Below are positions 13,385-41,787 of a stretch of DNA of 64,000 nucleotides, one piece after another. This DNA is from Escherichia coli 042 (GTDB lineage Bacteria > Pseudomonadota > Gammaproteobacteria > Enterobacterales > Enterobacteriaceae): assembly GCF_000027125.1 (NCBI RefSeq), contig NC_017626.1; one strand, given 5' to 3'. Below the pieces are notes generated by a model that had not been told where the DNA came from, made no database searches, and was given only the letters and a program-made list of their open reading frames with translations. The position numbers and the translations under genes were made by a program. Each line of letters begins with the position of its first letter. Position 1 is the first letter of the stretch.

Positions 13385-13470
13385 GCGTTAGATGATGGCA
13401 TTCTCACTCCAGCCAGAGCCACCAACTCAGGGCTGAAGAGTAAAAAAACCGACGCAAAGTCGGTTTTTTT
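13385..13470 (+). ncRNA. agrA: agrA-like small RNA (approximate ends)
   Basis: First full copy of the repeat ctctcactccagccagagccaccaactcagggctg ending in the terminator aaaaaaaccgacgcaaagtcggttttttt; the 5' end is a guess. Confidence 0.45.
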
Positions 13471-13616
13471 ACATCCGGATTCGGACAAGGCTTAATATGA
13501 CGATGACCCAGTGAAAGTATATAAATCGTCACTGCGATATATACCGAAGTGCTCCCTCCGCCAGCTGAAGAAACCGCTAATTCTTGCAATGTTAGCCACT
13601 GGCTAATAGTATTGAA

Positions 13617-13701
13617 CCGTTAGATAAGAGCTCTCTCACTCCAGCCAGAGCCACCAACTCAGGGCTGGAAAGTAAAAAACCGACGCAAAGTCGGTTTTTT
13701 T
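13617..13701 (+). ncRNA. agrB: agrB-like antisense small RNA, antitoxin for dinQ (approximate ends)
   Basis: Second copy of the same repeat and terminator (13674-13701); complementary to the partial repeat at 13190-13250 that lies inside the dinQ transcript. Confidence 0.45.
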
Positions 13702-13853
13702 ACGTCCTGATTCAGACCTCCTTTCAAATGAATACCCAACGCTTAATTCACACCTATTACCTTCCTCTGCACATACACATTCGTTAAACCATATATGTTT
13801 TTGACTTATCCGCTTCGAAGAGAGACACTACCTGCAACAATCAGGAGCGCAAT

Positions 13854-14207
13854 ATGTCATTTCTCTTACCCATCCAACTGTTCAAAATTCTTGCTGATGA
13901 GACCCGTCTGGGCATCGTTTTACTGCTAAGCGAGCTGGGAGAGTTATGTGTCTGCGATCTCTGTACTGCCCTCGATCAGTCGCAGCCCAAGATATCCCGC
14001 CACCTGGCGCTTCTTCGTGAAAGCGGGCTATTGCTGGATCGCAAGCAGGGTAAGTGGGTTCATTACCGCTTATCGCCGCATATTCCAGCATGGGCAGCGA
14101 AAATTATTGAGCAAACAAGATTAAGCCAACTGGACGACGTGCAGGCTATCGCCCGTAAGCTGGCCGCAGCCAACTGCTCTGCAGACGGTAAAGCAAGCTG
14201 CAGTTAA
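13854..14207 (+). CDS. arsR: Arsenical resistance operon repressor ArsR (117 aa)
   Basis: ArsR/SmtB HTH with the As(III)-binding ELCVCDLC motif. Confidence 0.9.
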   Translation: MSFLLPIQLFKILADETRLGIVLLLSELGELCVCDLCTALDQSQPKISRHLALLRESGLLLDRKQGKWVHYRLSPHIPAWAAKIIEQTRLSQLDDVQAIARKLAAANCSADGKASCS

Positions 14208-14254
14208 AAAATTTGCCTGGATATATATGATTTTCCGAATGTGAGGTGTCGAAG

Positions 14255-14617
14255 ATGAAGACGTTAACGGTGTTTGATCCGGCGATGTGTTGCAGTACCG
14301 GCGTCTGTGGTTCTGATGTTGATCAGGTGCTGGTCGATTTTTCCGCAGATGTGCAATGGCTGAAAAGCCGCGGTGTTCAGGTCGAACGTTACAATCTCGC
14401 GCAGCAACCGATGAGTTTCGTGCAAAACGAAAAAGCGAAAGCGTTTCTTGAGGCTTCCGGGGCGGAAGGATTGCCCTTGATCTTACTGGGAGGCGAAACC
14501 GTGATGGCGGGCCGTTATCCGAAACGCGCCGAGCTAGCCCGCTGGTTTGGGATCCCGCTGGAGAAGGTGGGGCTGGCACCAACACACTGCTGTGGCGGAA
14601 AAACCGACTGTTGTTGA
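14255..14617 (+). CDS. arsD: Arsenic metallochaperone / secondary regulator ArsD (120 aa)
   Basis: MKTLTVFDPAMCCSTGVCG with Cys12-Cys13-Cys18 and a C-terminal cysteine-rich tail; ATG at 14255 preceded by gaggtg. Confidence 0.85.
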   Translation: MKTLTVFDPAMCCSTGVCGSDVDQVLVDFSADVQWLKSRGVQVERYNLAQQPMSFVQNEKAKAFLEASGAEGLPLILLGGETVMAGRYPKRAELARWFGIPLEKVGLAPTHCCGGKTDCC

Positions 14618-14634
14618 GCCGGTCAGGGGGACAT

Positions 14635-16386
14635 ATGAAATTCTTACAGAATATCCCGCCTTATCTGTTTTTTACCGGTAAGGGAGGTGTAGGTAAAACG
14701 TCAATTTCCTGCGCAACTGCTATCCATCTGGCGGAACAGGGAAAACGGGTTCTGCTTGTCAGCACCGACCCCGCGTCGAATGTCGGTCAGGTATTTAATC
14801 AAACTATTGGTAACGCTATTACTCCTGTGACAGCGGTTCCCGATTTGTCAGCGCTGGAAATTGACCCTCAGCAAGCCGCTGAACAGTATCGGGCCAGAAT
14901 CGTTGACCCTATCAAAGGACTTCTCCCTGAGGAGGTTGTAAATAGTATACGCGAACAACTTTCGGGAGCATGTACGACAGAGATCGCGGCGTTCGATGAG
15001 TTCACCGGTTTACTGACCGATGCCTCTCTGCTGGCCCGCTTTGATCACATCATTTTTGATACCGCGCCAACGGGCCATACCATACGACTTCTGCAGCTCC
15101 CCGGTGCCTGGAGCAGTTTTATTGAAAGTAATCCCGATGGTGCCTCCTGTCTTGGCCCGATGGCTGGGCTGGAAAAACAGCGTGAGCAGTACGCTGATGC
15201 GGTAGAAGCATTATCCGATCCTGAGCGTACCCGCCTGGTGCTGGTTGCACGCCTGCAAAAATCAACATTGCAGGAAGTCGCTCGCACTCATGAAGAACTG
15301 GCAGCGATTGGTCTTAAAAATCAGTATCTGGTGATCAACGGCGTATTGCCTGAGTCCGGGCAGCAAAATGACCCACTAGCAATGGCAATAGTTCAGCGTG
15401 AGCAGGAAGCCCTGGTAAATTTACCCGCCGGTTTATCGACCATTCCAGCAGATACCCTCTTTCTTCAACCGGTGAACATGGTTGGCGTGCCTGCATTAAA
15501 AGGTCTTTTTAATACCCGTTTCGAGCCTGCCCCACTCTCTGGCCAGGTGCGCCAGCAATTCTCTGAAAACATGTCATTCTCTGAGTTAGTGAATGATATT
15601 GCCCGCAGTGAACACGGTCTGATCATGCTGATGGGAAAAGGCGGCGTGGGGAAAACCACAATGGCCGCAGCTATCGCCGTCAGGCTGGCAGATATGGGAT
15701 TCGATGTGCATCTTACAACCTCCGATCCTGCTGCCCACATTAACACTACCCTAAACGGCACACTTAACAACCTACAGGTCAGCAGGATCAATCCGCAGGA
15801 AGAGACCGAGCGCTATCGCCAGCATGTCCTTGAGACAAAGGGAAAAGATCTCGATGAAGCGGGGAAACGACTGCTGGAAGAGGATTTACGCTCTCCCTGC
15901 ACCGAAGAGATTGCTGTATTTCAGGCGTTCTCGCGCGTGATCCGTGAGGCGGGTAAACGTTTTGTGGTGATGGATACCGCACCAACCGGTCACACGCTGT
16001 TACTGCTGGATGCCACCGGGGCTTATCACCGTGAAATTGCGAAAAAAATGGGCGAAAAAGGTCACTTTACTACGCCAATGATGCAACTTCAGGATCCGCA
16101 ACGCACCAAAGTGCTGCTGGTTACGCTGCCTGAAACCACACCCGTACTGGAAGCGGCTAATTTGCAGGCCGATCTTAAACGCGCAGGGATTCATCCCTGG
16201 GGCTGGATAATCAATAACTGCCTTTCTATTGCGGAAACTCGTTCGTCGCTACTGTGTCAGCGAGCAACGCAGGAACGACCACAAATTGAGGCGGTGATGG
16301 CCCGACATGCTAAGCGTGTAGCGCTGGTCCCTCTATTCGCACAAGAACCTACGGGTATCGAAAAACTCAGAAAGCTGGCAAGTTAA
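14635..16386 (+). CDS. arsA: Arsenite-stimulated ATPase ArsA (583 aa)
   Basis: Two homologous halves each with a P-loop (GKGGVGKTS, GKGGVGKTT) and DTAPTGHT signature. Confidence 0.9.
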   Translation: MKFLQNIPPYLFFTGKGGVGKTSISCATAIHLAEQGKRVLLVSTDPASNVGQVFNQTIGNAITPVTAVPDLSALEIDPQQAAEQYRARIVDPIKGLLPEEVVNSIREQLSGACTTEIAAFDEFTGLLTDASLLARFDHIIFDTAPTGHTIRLLQLPGAWSSFIESNPDGASCLGPMAGLEKQREQYADAVEALSDPERTRLVLVARLQKSTLQEVARTHEELAAIGLKNQYLVINGVLPESGQQNDPLAMAIVQREQEALVNLPAGLSTIPADTLFLQPVNMVGVPALKGLFNTRFEPAPLSGQVRQQFSENMSFSELVNDIARSEHGLIMLMGKGGVGKTTMAAAIAVRLADMGFDVHLTTSDPAAHINTTLNGTLNNLQVSRINPQEETERYRQHVLETKGKDLDEAGKRLLEEDLRSPCTEEIAVFQAFSRVIREAGKRFVVMDTAPTGHTLLLLDATGAYHREIAKKMGEKGHFTTPMMQLQDPQRTKVLLVTLPETTPVLEAANLQADLKRAGIHPWGWIINNCLSIAETRSSLLCQRATQERPQIEAVMARHAKRVALVPLFAQEPTGIEKLRKLAS

Positions 16387-16428
16387 TTTTTTATACAGGG
16401 CGACCATGTCGCCCTGTCAGGAGGGTGT

Positions 16429-17718
16429 ATGTTACTGGCAGGCGCTATTTTTGTCCTGACCATCGTATTGGTTATCTGGCAGCCGAAAGGTTTAGGCATC
16501 GGCTGGAGTGCAACGCTCGGCGCGGTACTGGCGTTGCTTACGGGCGTGGTTCATCCGGGTGATATTCCGGTGGTGTGGAATATCGTCTGGAACGCGACGG
16601 CGGCGTTTATTGCCGTCATTATCATCAGCCTGCTGCTGGATGAGTCCGGCTTTTTTGAATGGGCGGCGCTGCACGTCTCACGCTGGGGCAATGGACGCGG
16701 TCGCTTGCTGTTCACCTGGATTGTCCTGCTCGGTGCCGCCGTTGCAGCTCTGTTTGCCAATGATGGCGCGGCGCTGATTTTAACGCCAATTGTCATCGCC
16801 ATGCTGCTGGCTTTAGGATTCAGTAAAGGCACTACGCTTGCGTTTGTGATGGCGGCCGGGTTCATTGCCGATACCGCCAGCCTGCCGCTTATTGTCTCCA
16901 ACCTGGTGAATATCGTTTCCGCAGATTTCTTTGGCCTCGGCTTTCGCGAATACGCATCGGTGATGGTGCCGGTGGATATCGCCGCAATTGTTGCCACGCT
17001 GGTGATGTTGCATCTTTATTTCCGCAAAGATATTCCGCAGAACTACGACATGGCGCTGCTGAAATCGCCCGCAGAAGCGATTAAAGATCCTGCTACGTTC
17101 AAAACTGGCTGGTTTGTTTTACTGTTTCTGCTGGTGGGATTTTTCGTCCTGGAACCGCTCGGCATTCCGGTAAGCGCCATTGCGGCAGTGGGCGCGCTGA
17201 TATTATTTGCCGTCGCTAAACGCGGTCATGCAATTAATACGGGTAAAGTCCTGCGCGGTGCGCCCTGGCAGATTGTCATCTTCTCGCTCGGCATGTATCT
17301 GGTGGTTTATGGCCTGCGCAATGCCGGACTAACGGAATATCTTTCTGGCGTACTCAACGTGCTGGCGGAAAACGGCCTGTGGGCCGCGACGCTCGGCACC
17401 GGATTCCTCACCGCCTTCCTCTCTTCTATTATGAACAATATGCCGACGGTACTGGTTGGCGCGTTGTCCATTGATGGCAGCACGGCATCTGGCGTTATCA
17501 AAGAAGCGATGGTTTATGCCAACGTGATTGGCTGCGATTTGGGACCGAAAATTACCCCAATTGGTAGCCTGGCTACGCTACTCTGGCTGCACGTACTTTC
17601 GCAGAAGAATATGACTATCAGCTGGGGATATTACTTCCGTACAGGAATTATCATGACCCTGCCGGTGCTTTTTGTGACGCTGGCTGCGCTGGCGCTACGC
17701 CTCTCTTTCACTTTGTAA
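16429..17718 (+). CDS. arsB: Arsenite efflux pump ArsB (429 aa)
   Basis: 12-TM membrane protein of ArsB length, immediately after arsA. Confidence 0.9.
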
Positions 17719-17730
17719 TGAGATATTGAT

Positions 17731-18156
17731 ATGAGCAACATTACCATTTATCACAACCCGGCCTGCGGTACGTCGCGTAATACGCTGGAGATGATCCGCA
17801 ACAGCGGTACAGAACCGACCATTATCTATTATCTGGAAACACCGCCAACGCGCGATGAGCTGGTCAAACTCATTGCCGATATGGGGATTTCCGTACGCGC
17901 GCTGTTGCGTAAAAACGTCGAGCCGTATGAGGAACTGGGCCTTGCAGAAGATAAATTTACTGACGATCGGCTAATCGACTTTATGCTTCAGCACCCGATT
18001 CTGATTAATCGCCCGATTGTGGTGACGCCGCTGGGAACTCGCCTGTGCCGCCCTTCAGAAGTGGTGCTGGAAATTCTGCCAGATGCGCAACAACGCGCGT
18101 TCACCAAGGAAGATGGCGAGAAAGTGGTTGATGAAGCGGGTAAACGCCTGAAATAA
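17731..18156 (+). CDS. arsC: Arsenate reductase ArsC (glutaredoxin-coupled, 141 aa)
   Basis: Catalytic Cys12 context HNPACGTSRN; length 141 aa. Confidence 0.9.
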   Translation: MSNITIYHNPACGTSRNTLEMIRNSGTEPTIIYYLETPPTRDELVKLIADMGISVRALLRKNVEPYEELGLAEDKFTDDRLIDFMLQHPILINRPIVVTPLGTRLCRPSEVVLEILPDAQQRAFTKEDGEKVVDEAGKRLK

Positions 18157-24130: not shown

Positions 24131-26113
24131 TTACCATTGATAACTCACGAAAATTTTTCCATTACGACCATCCTGTGGGATGCCTTGTGGCGACCAGTAC
24201 TCTTTGTCGAAAGCGTTACCCAACACCAAAGTAGTGGTCATACCTTTGAGCGCCTGCTGCCCTTGATAACTGACGTAGAAATCATTCACGCCATAGCCTG
24301 GTTGTTTGCTGTAACTGCTGCTGATATGTGTTGAGCGATCGGCAAACGTACCAACCCACCCAACAGAGAAGCCACTGTGAGCGATCGGAATATTCAGGGT
24401 GCTGGTAACGGTATCCGGGTTAATACTGGAGATATATTCGCCGGTATCGGTGTCTTTGCCGCGGGTACGGTTATAGGCCACATCAAGGCTAAACAGATCA
24501 GTGGTATATTTCGTCATCACATCCCAACCCCAGATTTTGGCGTTCGGGACGTTATACGACATAGTTGTCGCCGCCGCGAAATCGACGGTCGTGGAGATGT
24601 AATCCTTCGCTTTGGTATCAAAGTAGCTGGCTTTAAATTCCAGAGCATCATTGGACAACATCAGATCATCAAAACGCAGCCCAAAACCGTACTCCTGAGT
24701 TTCGTTAGTTTCCGGACGTAAGTTCGGGTTTGGCACCCAATAGTTGGTATAGAAGCGACCAATCGAGAAGTGCTTAGAATCGTTATACATTTCGCCCATC
24801 GTCGGGGCGCGGAATGCCTGGGCATATGAGCCAAATAACATCAGCCAGTTAGCCGGGTTGATAGTCATCCCCGCGCGAGATGACCATTTGTCGGCATCAA
24901 CATCTTTGTAGCCGTCGCTGCTACCGCGATAACTGTCATAGCGGGTTCCGCCAAGCAGGGTAATCGGCAGATCGCGTAAGGTGATCTCATCCTGTAGCCA
25001 GCCGGAGCTAAAATCGATTTTTGCTTGCGGGAAGCCCGTCGTCGCGCCGCCCGGATGTTGTTCCTGACGATAATACTCACCGCCATATGTCAGTAAGTGA
25101 GAAGCGAAACTGTCGGCAAATAGAGTGGAACGGTTCTCCAGTTTGGCTCCTTTTGTTATCTGTTCACGATACTCGCCGGAACTCCCCGTGTTTTGCGCAT
25201 TAATACGGACTTCCGACCAGTAAATTTTTGCATCTGCATTTAACCAGTCGTTGCCCTGCGGGGCGAGTTTATAAGAAAGCTGCGCATCGCGTTGAATTGT
25301 TGAACGATCAACCATCGGGTTGCTGCTATCAGAAGCTTCAACGGTCTGCGGATTTTTTGGTTCACGCGCGTCGTTGTTGTAGTAACGCACTAAACCGCTC
25401 AGAGACTGGGCTGAATCAATTTGCCAGGTCCCTTTCGCCAGCATGTTATTAATGGACTCGTCATTCGGCGCGGTTTCACCATTGCTCTGGCGTAAATCAC
25501 CCCGATCGCGACTGGACCAGGCCACAATACCATCCAGATTTTCAGTTCGCCCAAACGCGCTCGCGCCTAATCCCAGGCTATGGTCCCCCGTGCCGCCAGT
25601 ACCAAAGACACGAAAACCACTACTTTGTCCTTCCTGCAATAAATCTTTTGCATCGACCGTATCGTAGGAGATCACCCCACCCAGCGCGCCACTGCCATAC
25701 AGTAATGCTGAAGGTCCGCGAACAATCTCAACACGCTTGATCAGCGCCGGATCAAGAAAAGTACCATTCAGGTGTCCGGTATCCGTTCCCTGGCGAACAC
25801 CATCGACAAGAACCAGCACGCCGCGATGATCATAGCCACGCATATTTACATCCTGACCGTTGGTTCGTCCGGTACCATCAAGAGTAATTCCAGGAACATG
25901 ACGCAGCAGATCGGTGGCTGAAGTAGCCGTTTGATTTTCAGGAGCGGAAGTGTCGATGACGCTGACCATCATAGGCGCTTCGAAGGAACTACGGGCATTC
26001 CCCGTTGCCGTAACGGTCATGGTTTCAGTAGCAAAAGCAAACGTTGGCAAGGTGGCAGAAACAGCCAAAGCCAACAAACTCAAACGCAACGAGGTAAATT
26101 GCGGACGTGACAT
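24131..26113 (-). CDS. chuA: TonB-dependent outer membrane haem/haemoglobin receptor ChuA (660 aa)
   Basis: Signal peptide, TonB-box region, plug and beta-barrel, C-terminal aromatic residue. Confidence 0.9.
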   Translation of the reverse strand: MSRPQFTSLRLSLLALAVSATLPTFAFATETMTVTATGNARSSFEAPMMVSVIDTSAPENQTATSATDLLRHVPGITLDGTGRTNGQDVNMRGYDHRGVLVLVDGVRQGTDTGHLNGTFLDPALIKRVEIVRGPSALLYGSGALGGVISYDTVDAKDLLQEGQSSGFRVFGTGGTGDHSLGLGASAFGRTENLDGIVAWSSRDRGDLRQSNGETAPNDESINNMLAKGTWQIDSAQSLSGLVRYYNNDAREPKNPQTVEASDSSNPMVDRSTIQRDAQLSYKLAPQGNDWLNADAKIYWSEVRINAQNTGSSGEYREQITKGAKLENRSTLFADSFASHLLTYGGEYYRQEQHPGGATTGFPQAKIDFSSGWLQDEITLRDLPITLLGGTRYDSYRGSSDGYKDVDADKWSSRAGMTINPANWLMLFGSYAQAFRAPTMGEMYNDSKHFSIGRFYTNYWVPNPNLRPETNETQEYGFGLRFDDLMLSNDALEFKASYFDTKAKDYISTTVDFAAATTMSYNVPNAKIWGWDVMTKYTTDLFSLDVAYNRTRGKDTDTGEYISSINPDTVTSTLNIPIAHSGFSVGWVGTFADRSTHISSSYSKQPGYGVNDFYVSYQGQQALKGMTTTLVLGNAFDKEYWSPQGIPQDGRNGKIFVSYQW

Positions 26114-26118
26114 AGCGA

Positions 26119-26134
26119 TTCTCCATGAGGAAAA
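26119..26134 (-). promoter_or_regulatory. FourU-type RNA thermometer hairpin masking the chuA Shine-Dalgarno
   Basis: In chuA orientation 5'-UUUUCC-UCAU-GGAGAA-3' forms a 6-bp stem over the SD, 5 nt before the ATG; such a thermometer has been described for shuA/chuA. Confidence 0.5.
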
Positions 26135-26402
26135 TAAAAAATGCTGGCTGCCTGGGTTAATACCGGGGTGGCTGGCGAAAAATAAATTTATTTAAAATTC
26201 AGAGCGATAATATTCGCCGGGTGAGTTTACAGGCGTTTATATCCCATGAAATTGCCTGGTATCTCGGCAAATACGCAAAAGCACGCCCTCTTTGTCAGGC
26301 AAAACGATATGCCCCATCAGGAGTGAAGAGCGCTGTGCGTTACCCCTTGTAAATGATATGGCTTTGTTATCCATATGGCCGTATTTTGTTAAATGCAAAC
26401 GT

Positions 26403-26421
26403 GATAATGAGAATTATTATC
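26403..26421. promoter_or_regulatory. Fur box (17/19 match) in the chuA-chuT divergent region
   Basis: gataatgagaattattatc against consensus GATAATGATAATCATTATC. Confidence 0.55.
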
Positions 26422-26754
26422 GATCAATTTTTTATGATCAAGCTTTTTTTTAACCGCCATTAACACAATAAACAGAGGGTTATGAAACTTATCCTGCGCC
26501 CTGGAAACCACTTTATTTTTATGGTTATTCCCCCATGACCTCATCACTAAACTTTGTCGTTAACAGTGATAATTTTCTCTTCGCTTTGCTCTGCAAGCCT
26601 CGATATCTCTGGGTTCTCAGCTTTTTCCCGCGCTGAAATTTAGTCGGTAACAAGAACGTTAGCTGACGAAGCATCTTGATAAAAATCAAAAATAAATACG
26701 CTTGTAACGCCTTGCGTATTGAATCGACGGTTGTATTTCATATATAACTCAAAT

Positions 26755-26773
26755 GATAATCATGATCATTCTC
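26755..26773. promoter_or_regulatory. Fur box (16/19 match) just upstream of chuT
   Basis: gataatcatgatcattctc, 24 bp before the chuT ATG. Confidence 0.5.
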
Positions 26774-26796
26774 AATTTGATAAGAGTTCTCATATT

Positions 26797-27711
26797 ATGC
26801 CAAGGATCATCACCAGGCCGTTTCTTTTTTCCCCACTGACGTTATGTATTTCAGCCGTGGCCTCTGCTGCGAAGACCGCGGTAAAACGAAAAAAATTGTT
26901 TACGGCAGTACTGGCTCTTAGCTGGGCTTTTAGCGTAACGGCTGCCGAACGTATCGTGGTCGCAGGAGGATCGCTGACGGAGCTAATCTACGCGATGGGC
27001 GCTGGCGAACGCGTGGTTGGTGTCGATGAAACGACATCTTATCCACCAGAAACCGCCAAACTGCCGCATATTGGCTACTGGAAACAACTCAGCAGCGAAG
27101 GCATTTTGTCACTTCGCCCGGATAGCGTAATTACCTGGCAGGATGCCGGGCCACAAATTGTGCTCGACCAACTACGAGCGCAGAAAGTCAACGTCGTCAC
27201 CCTGCCGCGTGTGCCTGCCACCCTTGAGCAGATGTACGCCAACATTCGCCAACTGGCAAAAACGTTACAGGTTCCTGAACAAGGGGACGCGCTGGTGACA
27301 CAAATCAGCCAACGCCTGGAGCGAGTACAGCAAAACGTGGCGGCCAAAAAAGCCCCGGTTAAAGCCATGTTTATTCTCTCCGCAGGCGGAAGTGCGCCAC
27401 AGGTTGCCGGTAAAGGCAGCGTCGCGGACGCCATTCTTTCGCTTGCCGGAGCAGAAAACGTCGCTACCCACCAGCAGTACAAAAGCTACAGCGCGGAATC
27501 GCTGATTGCGGCTAACCCTGAAGTGATTGTCGTAACCTCACAAATGGTCGATGGCGATATTAATCGGCTACGTTCTATTGCCGGAATTACCCACACTGCC
27601 GCATGGAAAAACCAGCGCATTGTCACCGTTGATCAAAACCTGATTCTGGGAATGGGTCCGCGTATTGCTGATGTCGTTGAGTCTTTACACCAGCAGCTTT
27701 GGCCGCAATAA
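26797..27711 (+). CDS. chuT: Periplasmic haem-binding protein ChuT (~304 aa)
   Basis: Signal peptide and class III periplasmic binding-protein fold; start chosen at the ATG after the Fur box, alternative starts are possible. Confidence 0.75.
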   Translation: MPRIITRPFLFSPLTLCISAVASAAKTAVKRKKLFTAVLALSWAFSVTAAERIVVAGGSLTELIYAMGAGERVVGVDETTSYPPETAKLPHIGYWKQLSSEGILSLRPDSVITWQDAGPQIVLDQLRAQKVNVVTLPRVPATLEQMYANIRQLAKTLQVPEQGDALVTQISQRLERVQQNVAAKKAPVKAMFILSAGGSAPQVAGKGSVADAILSLAGAENVATHQQYKSYSAESLIAANPEVIVVTSQMVDGDINRLRSIAGITHTAAWKNQRIVTVDQNLILGMGPRIADVVESLHQQLWPQ

Positions 27712-35694: not shown

Positions 35695-36032
35695 TCAGGA
35701 CATAAGCAACTGAAATTGATGGCTGGCATGACGAGGGATGCAGATGCTGATTTCATTACCCCCGGTGATTACTAAAGGAGAGGCGAAAACGACTTTATTC
35801 CCCTGGTATGTGTATCCACCAGTAGAACCCTTCGTTGCCCGAATGCTGGCAGGAACTGTTGGCAGAACGGCAACATTTTTTTTGTCGTTGACCTCACCAT
35901 GTCGATCACTATGCCTGTATCCCACCTTACTGGCTGACAACCCCACTATGCCGCTGGTCTGTAAATCCCTCATATCTCTCCTCGCGCGCAATTTAAAGAA
36001 CCGTTATTTCTCAAGAATTTTCAGGGACTAAA

Positions 36033-41419: not shown

Positions 41420-41665
41420 GACTATCCCTTATATTTCATTACTGCGATTATTTCAATTTCAGTATACTAATGAAATGATGCCAGACTGTTTCTTAGCGCA
41501 AAAACTGCCAGATTTGGTAGGACCAAAATTTATCCACAAAGTAGTTTTGCATAACAGTTAATTGATAATAAGTAAATGCAACACGAATATATTTTCGCAC
41601 AGCGTATAGCTTATGTTTATAAAAAAATGGCTGATCTTATTTCCAGTAAAAGTTATATTTAACTT

Positions 41666-41771
41666 ACTGAGAGCACAAAGTTTCCCGTGCCAACAGGGAG
41701 TGTTATAACGGTTTATTAGTCTGGAGACGGCAGACTATCCTCTTCCCGGTCCCCTATGCCGGGTTTTTTTT
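41666..41771 (+). ncRNA. gadY: GadY small RNA, antisense to the gadX 3' UTR
   Basis: Plus-strand segment starting actgagagcacaaag and ending in the terminator ccggtcccctatgccggg plus T8, between gadW and gadX. Confidence 0.65.
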
Positions 41772-41787
41772 ATGTCTGAGTAAAACT

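Follow-up and report, generated by a model that had tools for sequence, protein, structure and literature searches.

The divergent chuA–chuT control region of Escherichia coli 042: published iron and temperature control, and a chuA leader that may hold a hemP relic

Introduction

In the Salmonella agsA-type FourU element, four uridines reportedly pair with purines of the Shine-Dalgarno (SD) sequence, in a short hairpin expected to melt at about 37 °C (Rfam RF01795). The hairpin upstream of chuA shares the four consecutive uridines paired with SD purines. It differs in that the agsA-type leader is short and contains two hairpins, whereas the chuA hairpin ends a 291-nt leader and has one U.G wobble among the four U pairs.

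The closest described system is the shuA/chuA thermometer itself. Kouse et al. (2013, PMC3660397) reported that shuA and chuA leaders in translational fusions express more at 37 than at 25 °C, that the mutation U-19C lowers and U-19A raises expression, and proposed a model that combines Fur (iron) with the thermometer. In EHEC, the thermometer mutation was repeated as U273A by Sy & Tree (2022, PMC9002310), who used dRNA-seq to place the 5' end of the chuA transcript 291 nt ahead of its ATG. According to the same study, CyaR activates chuA by pairing about 15 nt 5' of the SD, RyhB and Esr41 repress it, ChiX represses it indirectly, and Rho-dependent termination occurs at +271 and requires the stretch from +177 to +217. 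The leader was treated there as an unusually long UTR and the mechanism of CyaR was left open; hemP and repeats are unmentioned.

On the other arm of the locus, the Shigella shuT transcription start was mapped 42 nt before the start codon, with a three-mismatch Fur site at +1 to +19 that confers Fur-dependent iron regulation on a reporter, Fur binding being assayed by gel shift (Wei et al., 2017, PMC5458455). The 42-nt shuT leader was described as an RNA thermometer of a different class (Wei et al., 2017). Fur ChIP-exo and expression data place chuASTUVWXY within the Fur regulon of pathogenic strains (PMC10164565).

Also related are the Yersinia-type hemPRSTUV operons with HemP/HmuP. These operons have in common with the Escherichia locus a Fur-box promoter followed by the slot of a small gene, then GCCAGCC/CAGCCAGC direct repeats about 30 nt before the receptor ATG, the receptor gene and hemS. 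The Escherichia locus differs in that the slot no longer encodes HemP and a divergent chuTWXYUV module stands in place of hemT. HmuP-responsive elements (HPREs) have been described in this setting, for example CCCGCAAGCCAGCCGACAGCCAGCCAGCG, located 26 nt before the ATG of Chromobacterium violaceum chuR (de Lima 2022, PMC9131926). Such sites have to date been described only in alpha- and betaproteobacteria, and according to PMC9241770, which cites Amarelle 2019, gammaproteobacteria have none.

Here we describe the region between chuA and chuT in a 64-kb stretch of the Escherichia coli 042 chromosome, hereafter the window.

Results

Layout and distribution of the region

The 680-bp intergenic region of a preliminary description is, by the ORF list and the RefSeq annotation of a relative, 683 bp long (26114-26796) and separates the divergent genes chuA and chuT. 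Gene calls and coordinates (Table 1) agree with the RefSeq annotation of the 99.9% identical E. coli 118UI, in which the flanking genes are named chuS, chuA, shuT, hutW, hutX, chuY and shuU, and in which the chu locus forms part of the acid-fitness island, flanked by dctR and yhiD. The region is present in 2236 of 5426 complete E. coli genomes and comes in two allele classes, one of about 1000 genomes at an identity of at least 95%, the other of 1229 genomes at 80-90% (B2 type, e.g., ST131). Between D/E and B2 alleles, promoters, repeat block and thermometer are 100% identical; identity is 79% in the putative relic ORF and 67% in its tail.

Table 1. Features of the chuA–chuT region, in window coordinates
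Feature	Position	Strand	Basis and remarks
chuA CDS, TonB-dependent haem receptor	24131..26113	-	ORF list and RefSeq annotation of 99.9% identical genome; chuS is next
Rfam RF02597, 'shuA/chuA 5' UTR thermoregulator' (U-tract, FourU hairpin, SD, AUG)	26111..26142	-	60.1 bits, gathering score 58
FourU hairpin AUUUUCC-UCAU-GGAGAAU; SD at 26119-26124	26118..26135	-	Minimum-free-energy fold
Predicted CyaR site, leader -43..-25, overlapping the second repeat	26138..26156	-	Best duplex with CyaR nt 20-39, about -18 kcal/mol
HPRE-type direct repeats GCCAGCCACCCCGG (26163-26176) and CCCAGGCAGCCAGC (26143-26156)	26143..26176	-	Motif search and conservation
Repressive stretch +177..+217, approximate (+/-2 nt)	26188..26228	-	Mapped from the 291-nt numbering of PMC9002310; +271 is about 26134
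45-codon ORF MDNKAISFTRGNAQRSSLLMGHIVLPDKEGVLLRICRDTRQFHGI, putative hemP remnant; ATG 26374-26372	26237..26374	-	Slot position
Fur box at chuA promoter, 17/19	26403..26421		Covers -10 hexamer and transcription start (about 26404-26405)
chuA promoter, TTGATC, 17-nt spacer, AATAAT	26441-26436 and 26418-26413	-	Fits the start of the published 291-nt leader
Inter-promoter spacer, no feature found	26442..26718		91% identity D/E vs B2, about 70% to E. albertii; no Rfam match
Putative chuT promoter, TTGAAT, 18-nt spacer, TATAAC	26719-26724 and 26743-26748	+	Sequence relative to published start
chuT Fur operator, 16/19 box 26755-26773 (+1..+19) and overlapping 15/19 box	26749..26773		Scan; Wei 2017
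chuT 42-nt leader, second (non-FourU) RNA thermometer; SD AAGAG 26782-26786	26755..26799	+	Fold and Wei 2017
chuT/shuT CDS, first gene of chuTWXYUV	26797..27711	+	ORF list and RefSeq annotation of 99.9% identical genome

Some observations were made on annotation and neighbourhood. In one genome (NZ_CP032515.1), RefSeq locus tags skip from RS20795 to RS20805 in the chuA-shuT gap, so that an intergenic feature once called there has apparently been withdrawn, and the thermometer of this genome is annotated without any RNA feature. Two E. coli hits at this region were atypical (NZ_AP022044.1 and NZ_CP172818.1): in one strain the intergenic region was matched at two separate places, the best of which covers 61%, suggesting an insertion; in the other, the stretch from -75 to +18 is just 90% identical and chuA is annotated as a plug-domain fragment. 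Elsewhere in the window, Rfam matches above the gathering score were found on the plus strand for AgrB (twice, 13388-13472 and 13620-13703, adjoining dinQ), ES205 (35812-35883, near gadE) and GadY (41663-41776, between gadW and gadX), all of them expected residents of this chromosomal region. Positions 13854-18156 carry a five-gene ars cluster (arsR-like, arsD, arsA, arsB, arsC), followed by a second ArsR/SmtB regulator and a permease; the K-12 cluster presumably consists of arsRBC only, without arsD and arsA.

Promoters and Fur boxes

Scanning the 64-kb window with the Fur consensus GATAATGATAATCATTATC and a cut-off of at most three mismatches recovered both Fur boxes of the preliminary description, with the same scores, and no other site, against a shuffle expectation of 0.01. 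The second box is overlapped by a further match with 15 of 19 positions, shifted by 6 bp (26749-26767). Both boxes agree with the consensus at 16 or more of the 19 positions and lie over a promoter or transcription start, as is typical of Fur operators. The second box is exactly the Fur site mapped in Shigella, and the published shuT start corresponds to G26755 (Wei et al., 2017); in start, three-mismatch Fur site and single-hairpin leader, we saw no difference between Shigella shuT and the window. The Fur boxes and thermometer of this allele are identical to those of experimentally tested strains.

The slot between promoter and receptor gene

A protein-anchored scan with one genome per species gave 80 loci in Enterobacteriaceae and Budviciaceae with ChuA relatives of 57-98% identity, and their leaders were aligned over the 450 nt that precede the start codon. 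In 70 of the 73 loci outside Escherichia, the slot of the chuA "5'UTR" is filled by an intact hemP. These ORFs have 54-62 codons, end in ...GQHYLLRQTxAGKLILTK and lie between a Fur-box promoter and the receptor gene. Six of them, from six neighbouring genera, were compared with Pfam PF10636 (hemP), a family characterized by conserved His/Tyr and a C-terminal KLILTK, and scored 57-65 bits; close relatives are named HemP in public sources. A word-indexed protein search with the Enterobacter HemP returned close relatives only. The related loci have the order hemP-hemR-hemS-hemT on one strand, and a divergent chuT is found only in Escherichia among the 80 loci. Three Buttiauxella loci (L039, L043, L070) are without an intact hemP, and the ORF in L043 shares its ending, ...RERIPMSLHK, with the ORF of an insertion described below.

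The promoter is retained in all seven Escherichia leaders, and ATGGATAAC in most of them. Their slot ORFs end after 45, 53, 45, 48, 40, 34 or 27 codons, in differing frames, and the four that were compared with Pfam had no match even at E ≤ 10. No intact chu-linked hemP was found when Kluyvera hemP DNA was compared by blastn with the 5426 E. coli genomes; the only matches, in two genomes, were to the stretch from the repeats to the SD.

The position of the slot is conserved nonetheless. It is bounded by the Fur-box promoter with ATGGATAAC on one flank and by the repeats on the other, and the anchored flank-to-flank distance is alike, with 185-187 nt in Escherichia versus 177-187 nt in hemP loci. 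This is what one would expect of a positional homologue of hemP, and we infer that the leader body is probably a hemP that decayed in place.

A live rival, though one we regard as improbable, is that hemP gave way to unrelated sequence, for instance at the joining of the chuAS and chuT-V modules. Replacement would fit the searches made from the hemP side: neither the HemP protein HMM, run against a six-frame translation of the window, nor the hemP coding-DNA profile (nhmmer, against the window) found anything at the leader, so the relic claim cannot rest on these profiles, and the ORF of the B2 allele, the best preserved, matched Kluyvera HemP by BLASTP in the right register at an E-value of 0.21 only. 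It would also fit the rearranged locus, as the divergent Escherichia chuT is only 31-45% identical to HemT of other genera. Against it stand the two homologous flanks and their conserved distance, together with the searches made from the Escherichia side. A profile of the Escherichia leader body (nhmmer) matched Kluyvera hemP colinearly (E = 0.0022, one genus), with three further weak colinear matches and none in the reversed database. In global alignment, the leader reached z = 3.4 with Kluyvera and Citrobacter koseri hemP, a score equalled by 0-1 of 300 shuffles (other genera, z = 0.2-2.3). The similarity of the leader body as such is weak, and we read the whole as probable decay in place.

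We also considered that the ORF at 26237-26374 might be a functional small protein or a regulatory uORF that tunes Rho termination. Most Escherichia alleles can be aligned over its ATG and first ~29 codons, Rho terminates within the leader, and the ORF is closely followed on its 3' side by the repressive stretch. Coupling of a uORF to Rho control is known from other long leaders, mgtA/mgtL and corA/corL. However, ORF ends and frames vary between Escherichia lineages, and an SD is not evident before the ATG. The pN/pS of the slot ORF is 0.55 in frame versus 0.85 and 0.45 out of frame, and 0.18 for intact hemP; the slot ORF thus carries no coding signal. One lineage (Escherichia sp. MOD1-EC7003; L004:1200-1400) has ATT for ATG and a ~125-bp repeat-element insertion inside the putative relic, an insertion that we take to resemble an ERIC/IRU-type repeat. 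A functional ORF is therefore quite improbable, and a dead hemP remains the preferred reading.

Repeats between the slot and the thermometer

A block of two direct repeats sits between the hemP slot and the thermometer. The pattern GCCAGCC-N(5-35)-CAGCCAGC was matched a single time in the window and never in 100 shuffled versions. In related loci possessing it, the pair occurs once per locus, in every case shortly upstream of the receptor gene. The pair can also be written as GCCAGCCACCCAGG-N(6-18)-AGGCAGCCAGC. Unrelated hemP loci, fetched independently from a family-wide search with 5740 representatives, carry this pair between hemP and receptor gene as well. The window repeats also look like the HPRE quoted for C. 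violaceum. As conserved direct repeats in the leader of a haem receptor gene, beside hemP, they resemble HPREs.

In K-12, the sequences preceding the siderophore receptor genes fhuA and fepA yielded no HPRE-type pair. A single exact pair turned up in the 112 kb of K-12 searched; it lies inside dksA, in antisense, and matches by codon composition, which means that a shuffle-based expectation understates chance pairs in coding DNA.

A conserved helix was considered for the repeats and rejected. They fold as a ladder of 2-bp steps split by C.A/A.C mismatches (z = -2.0), a fold that is possible because GCCAGC is nearly self-complementary, without covariation. Spacer length varies, and uncompensated changes turn the second CCAGG into CAAGG or CGAGG, so we treated the repeats as a sequence motif and not as a structure. 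The Chromobacterium repeats are too close together for the ladder fold.

The second repeat overlaps the site that we predict for CyaR. This site was the best duplex in a search of the leader from -75 to +3, using a CyaR sequence whose identity was verified by Rfam RF00112, and it agrees with the published location about 15 nt upstream of the SD (PMC9002310). In the chuA sense, the leader contains no RfaH ops element (GGCGGTAGNNTG, at most two mismatches); a published RfaH effect on chuA is not explained by a recognizable ops site.

The FourU thermometer of chuA

The 3' end of the chuA leader reads ...AUUUUUUAUUUUCCUCAUGGAGAAUCGCUAUG in the sense strand. That the chuA ribosome-binding site sits in a hairpin, as the preliminary description had it, is borne out by the minimum-free-energy fold, in which the SD GGAGAA lies within a 7-bp AUUUUCC/UCAU/GGAGAAU hairpin. 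The FourU pairs are U8-A23, U9-A22, U10.G21 and U11-A20; one A-U pair and two C-G pairs complete the stem. At 37 °C, the hairpin has a folding energy of -6.1 kcal/mol (z = -2.83), and an equally good fold was obtained for 5 of 200 shuffles. An unpaired SD in the minimum-free-energy structure would have spoken against the FourU proposal; instead, the SD was paired in folds of 32, 55 and 90 nt and of the full leader, from 20 to 45 °C.

The comparison of folds at 25 and 37 °C, which had been suggested as a check, confirmed the pairing of the SD and did not discriminate between the temperatures, as the pairing probability was at least 0.98 at both. On warming from 25 to 37 °C, the hairpin energy weakens from -8.4 to -6.1 kcal/mol; taken alone, the hairpin has an in-silico melting point of about 75 °C. 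Folding alone thus shows no switch between 25 and 37 °C, and the thermometer claim rests on published experiments. In this respect, the proposed identity as a FourU RNA thermometer agrees with both the curated family RF02597, whose consensus is matched at 32 of 32 positions, and the reporter and point-mutation work (PMC3660397). The element in the window belongs to this family and agrees in gene, position and hairpin with that of Kouse et al. (2013), without any difference. At E ≤ 10, the agsA-type FourU and the remaining Rfam thermometer models gave no match over positions 26000-26900. Residue U-19 forms the U.G wobble pair in the computed folds, and the published mutations shift the energy at 37 °C in the expected direction (U-19C to -8.7 kcal/mol, U-19A to -2.5 kcal/mol).

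Of 2235 complete E. coli genomes with the chu locus, 2184 show at least 99% identity over the stretch from -75 to +18. Throughout Escherichia the hairpin stays the same, while the adjoining leader drops to 67-79% identity. GGAG is predicted to be paired in all 54 distinct related leaders, at -2 to -7 kcal/mol, with a masking partner that differs among them (proximal UUUCC or UUCUU, or distal GCUUUUC). The probability of a paired SD in these leaders is 0.89 as observed versus 0.75 with upstream bases shuffled, so U-rich composition carries much of the masking. The extreme alternative, a hairpin that arises by chance where a U-rich leader adjoins a purine-rich SD and that senses no temperature, with Fur as sole control, could appeal to this residual pairing and to the equal in-silico pairing at 25 and 37 °C, but is extremely improbable given the invariance and z-score of the hairpin and is already refuted by published mutagenesis, in which stabilizing and destabilizing mutations have the predicted effects on expression at 37 or 25 °C for both shuA and chuA (PMC3660397), with the EHEC mutation as a repeat (PMC9002310).

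The leader of chuT

In the computed fold of the chuT leader, U15 and U16, the residues mutated by Wei et al. (2017), pair with the SD AAGAG. The fold is no stabler than that of shuffled sequences (z = 0.14), so its function as a thermometer rests on the experiments of Wei et al. (2017). The 19 bp at +1 to +19 serve twice, as Fur operator in the DNA and as anti-SD strand of the hairpin in the RNA. The preliminary description had included neither this thermometer nor the controls by CyaR, RyhB, Esr41 and Rho on the chuA leader.

YdiE, an orphan HemP paralogue

A paralogue of HemP is encoded in K-12, which is without the chu locus. The ydiE gene (b1705; L092:7614-7805) carries the annotation 'PF10636 family protein', matches that family with 56.8 bits and is preceded by a Fur-box-like sequence; its product and the C-terminal domain of Kluyvera HemP share 61% identity. 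In a study of nine strains, ydiE belongs to the core Fur regulon, with its function listed as 'unknown' (PMC10164565). Among the publications searched, those that mention both ydiE and chuA draw no link between them, and our literature search found no paper tying the chuA leader to a hemP relic, HPRE repeats or YdiE.

Discussion

The divergent chu control region almost certainly works as published, with a gate of Fur and thermometer on both arms. Two sigma-70 promoters point apart, each under a Fur operator, so that iron-loaded Fur would block transcription of both chuAS and chuTWXYUV. Each mRNA leader would hold its SD in a weak U-rich hairpin that is closed at 25 °C and opens at 37 °C, in chuA the FourU hairpin ending the 291-nt leader, in chuT the single hairpin formed by the whole 42-nt leader. 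With the Fur block and hairpins that open at 37 °C, protein would be made only at low iron and body temperature. On the chuA leader, further layers would be added by CyaR as activator, by RyhB and Esr41 as repressors acting on the ribosome-binding site, and by premature termination through Rho. Sequence features, their positions, the match to a curated family and conservation come from the present analysis; Fur dependence, thermoregulation, CyaR and Rho are taken from the literature. The combined iron and temperature control put forward in the preliminary description is thus correct and already known, as the same model was published by Kouse et al. (2013, PMC3660397), and nothing is added to it here.

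The only part that might be new is the lead concerning hemP, HPREs and YdiE. From comparison of sequences, the 291-nt leader can with reasonable confidence be described as the relic of the hemP of a Yersinia-type hemPRS operon, followed by HPRE-type repeats. The chuA leader would then be long because it was once a gene, and Rho termination within it may be the ordinary polarity of an RNA that is no longer translated. A fuller reading goes further and is doubtful: the HPRE-type sites would still be in use by CyaR, which is predicted to pair at the second repeat, and possibly by YdiE, and this use would be why E. coli keeps the repeats. An action of YdiE in trans on the chuA repeats is speculation.

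If true, this history would give a reason why the chuA leader ranks among the longest in E. coli and why Rho terminates within it, and would suggest the nature of the CyaR activation site. It would also extend HPRE-type elements to the gammaproteobacteria and provide a testable function for YdiE, a member of the core Fur regulon, a comparative lead that may be of relevance to researchers studying haem uptake.
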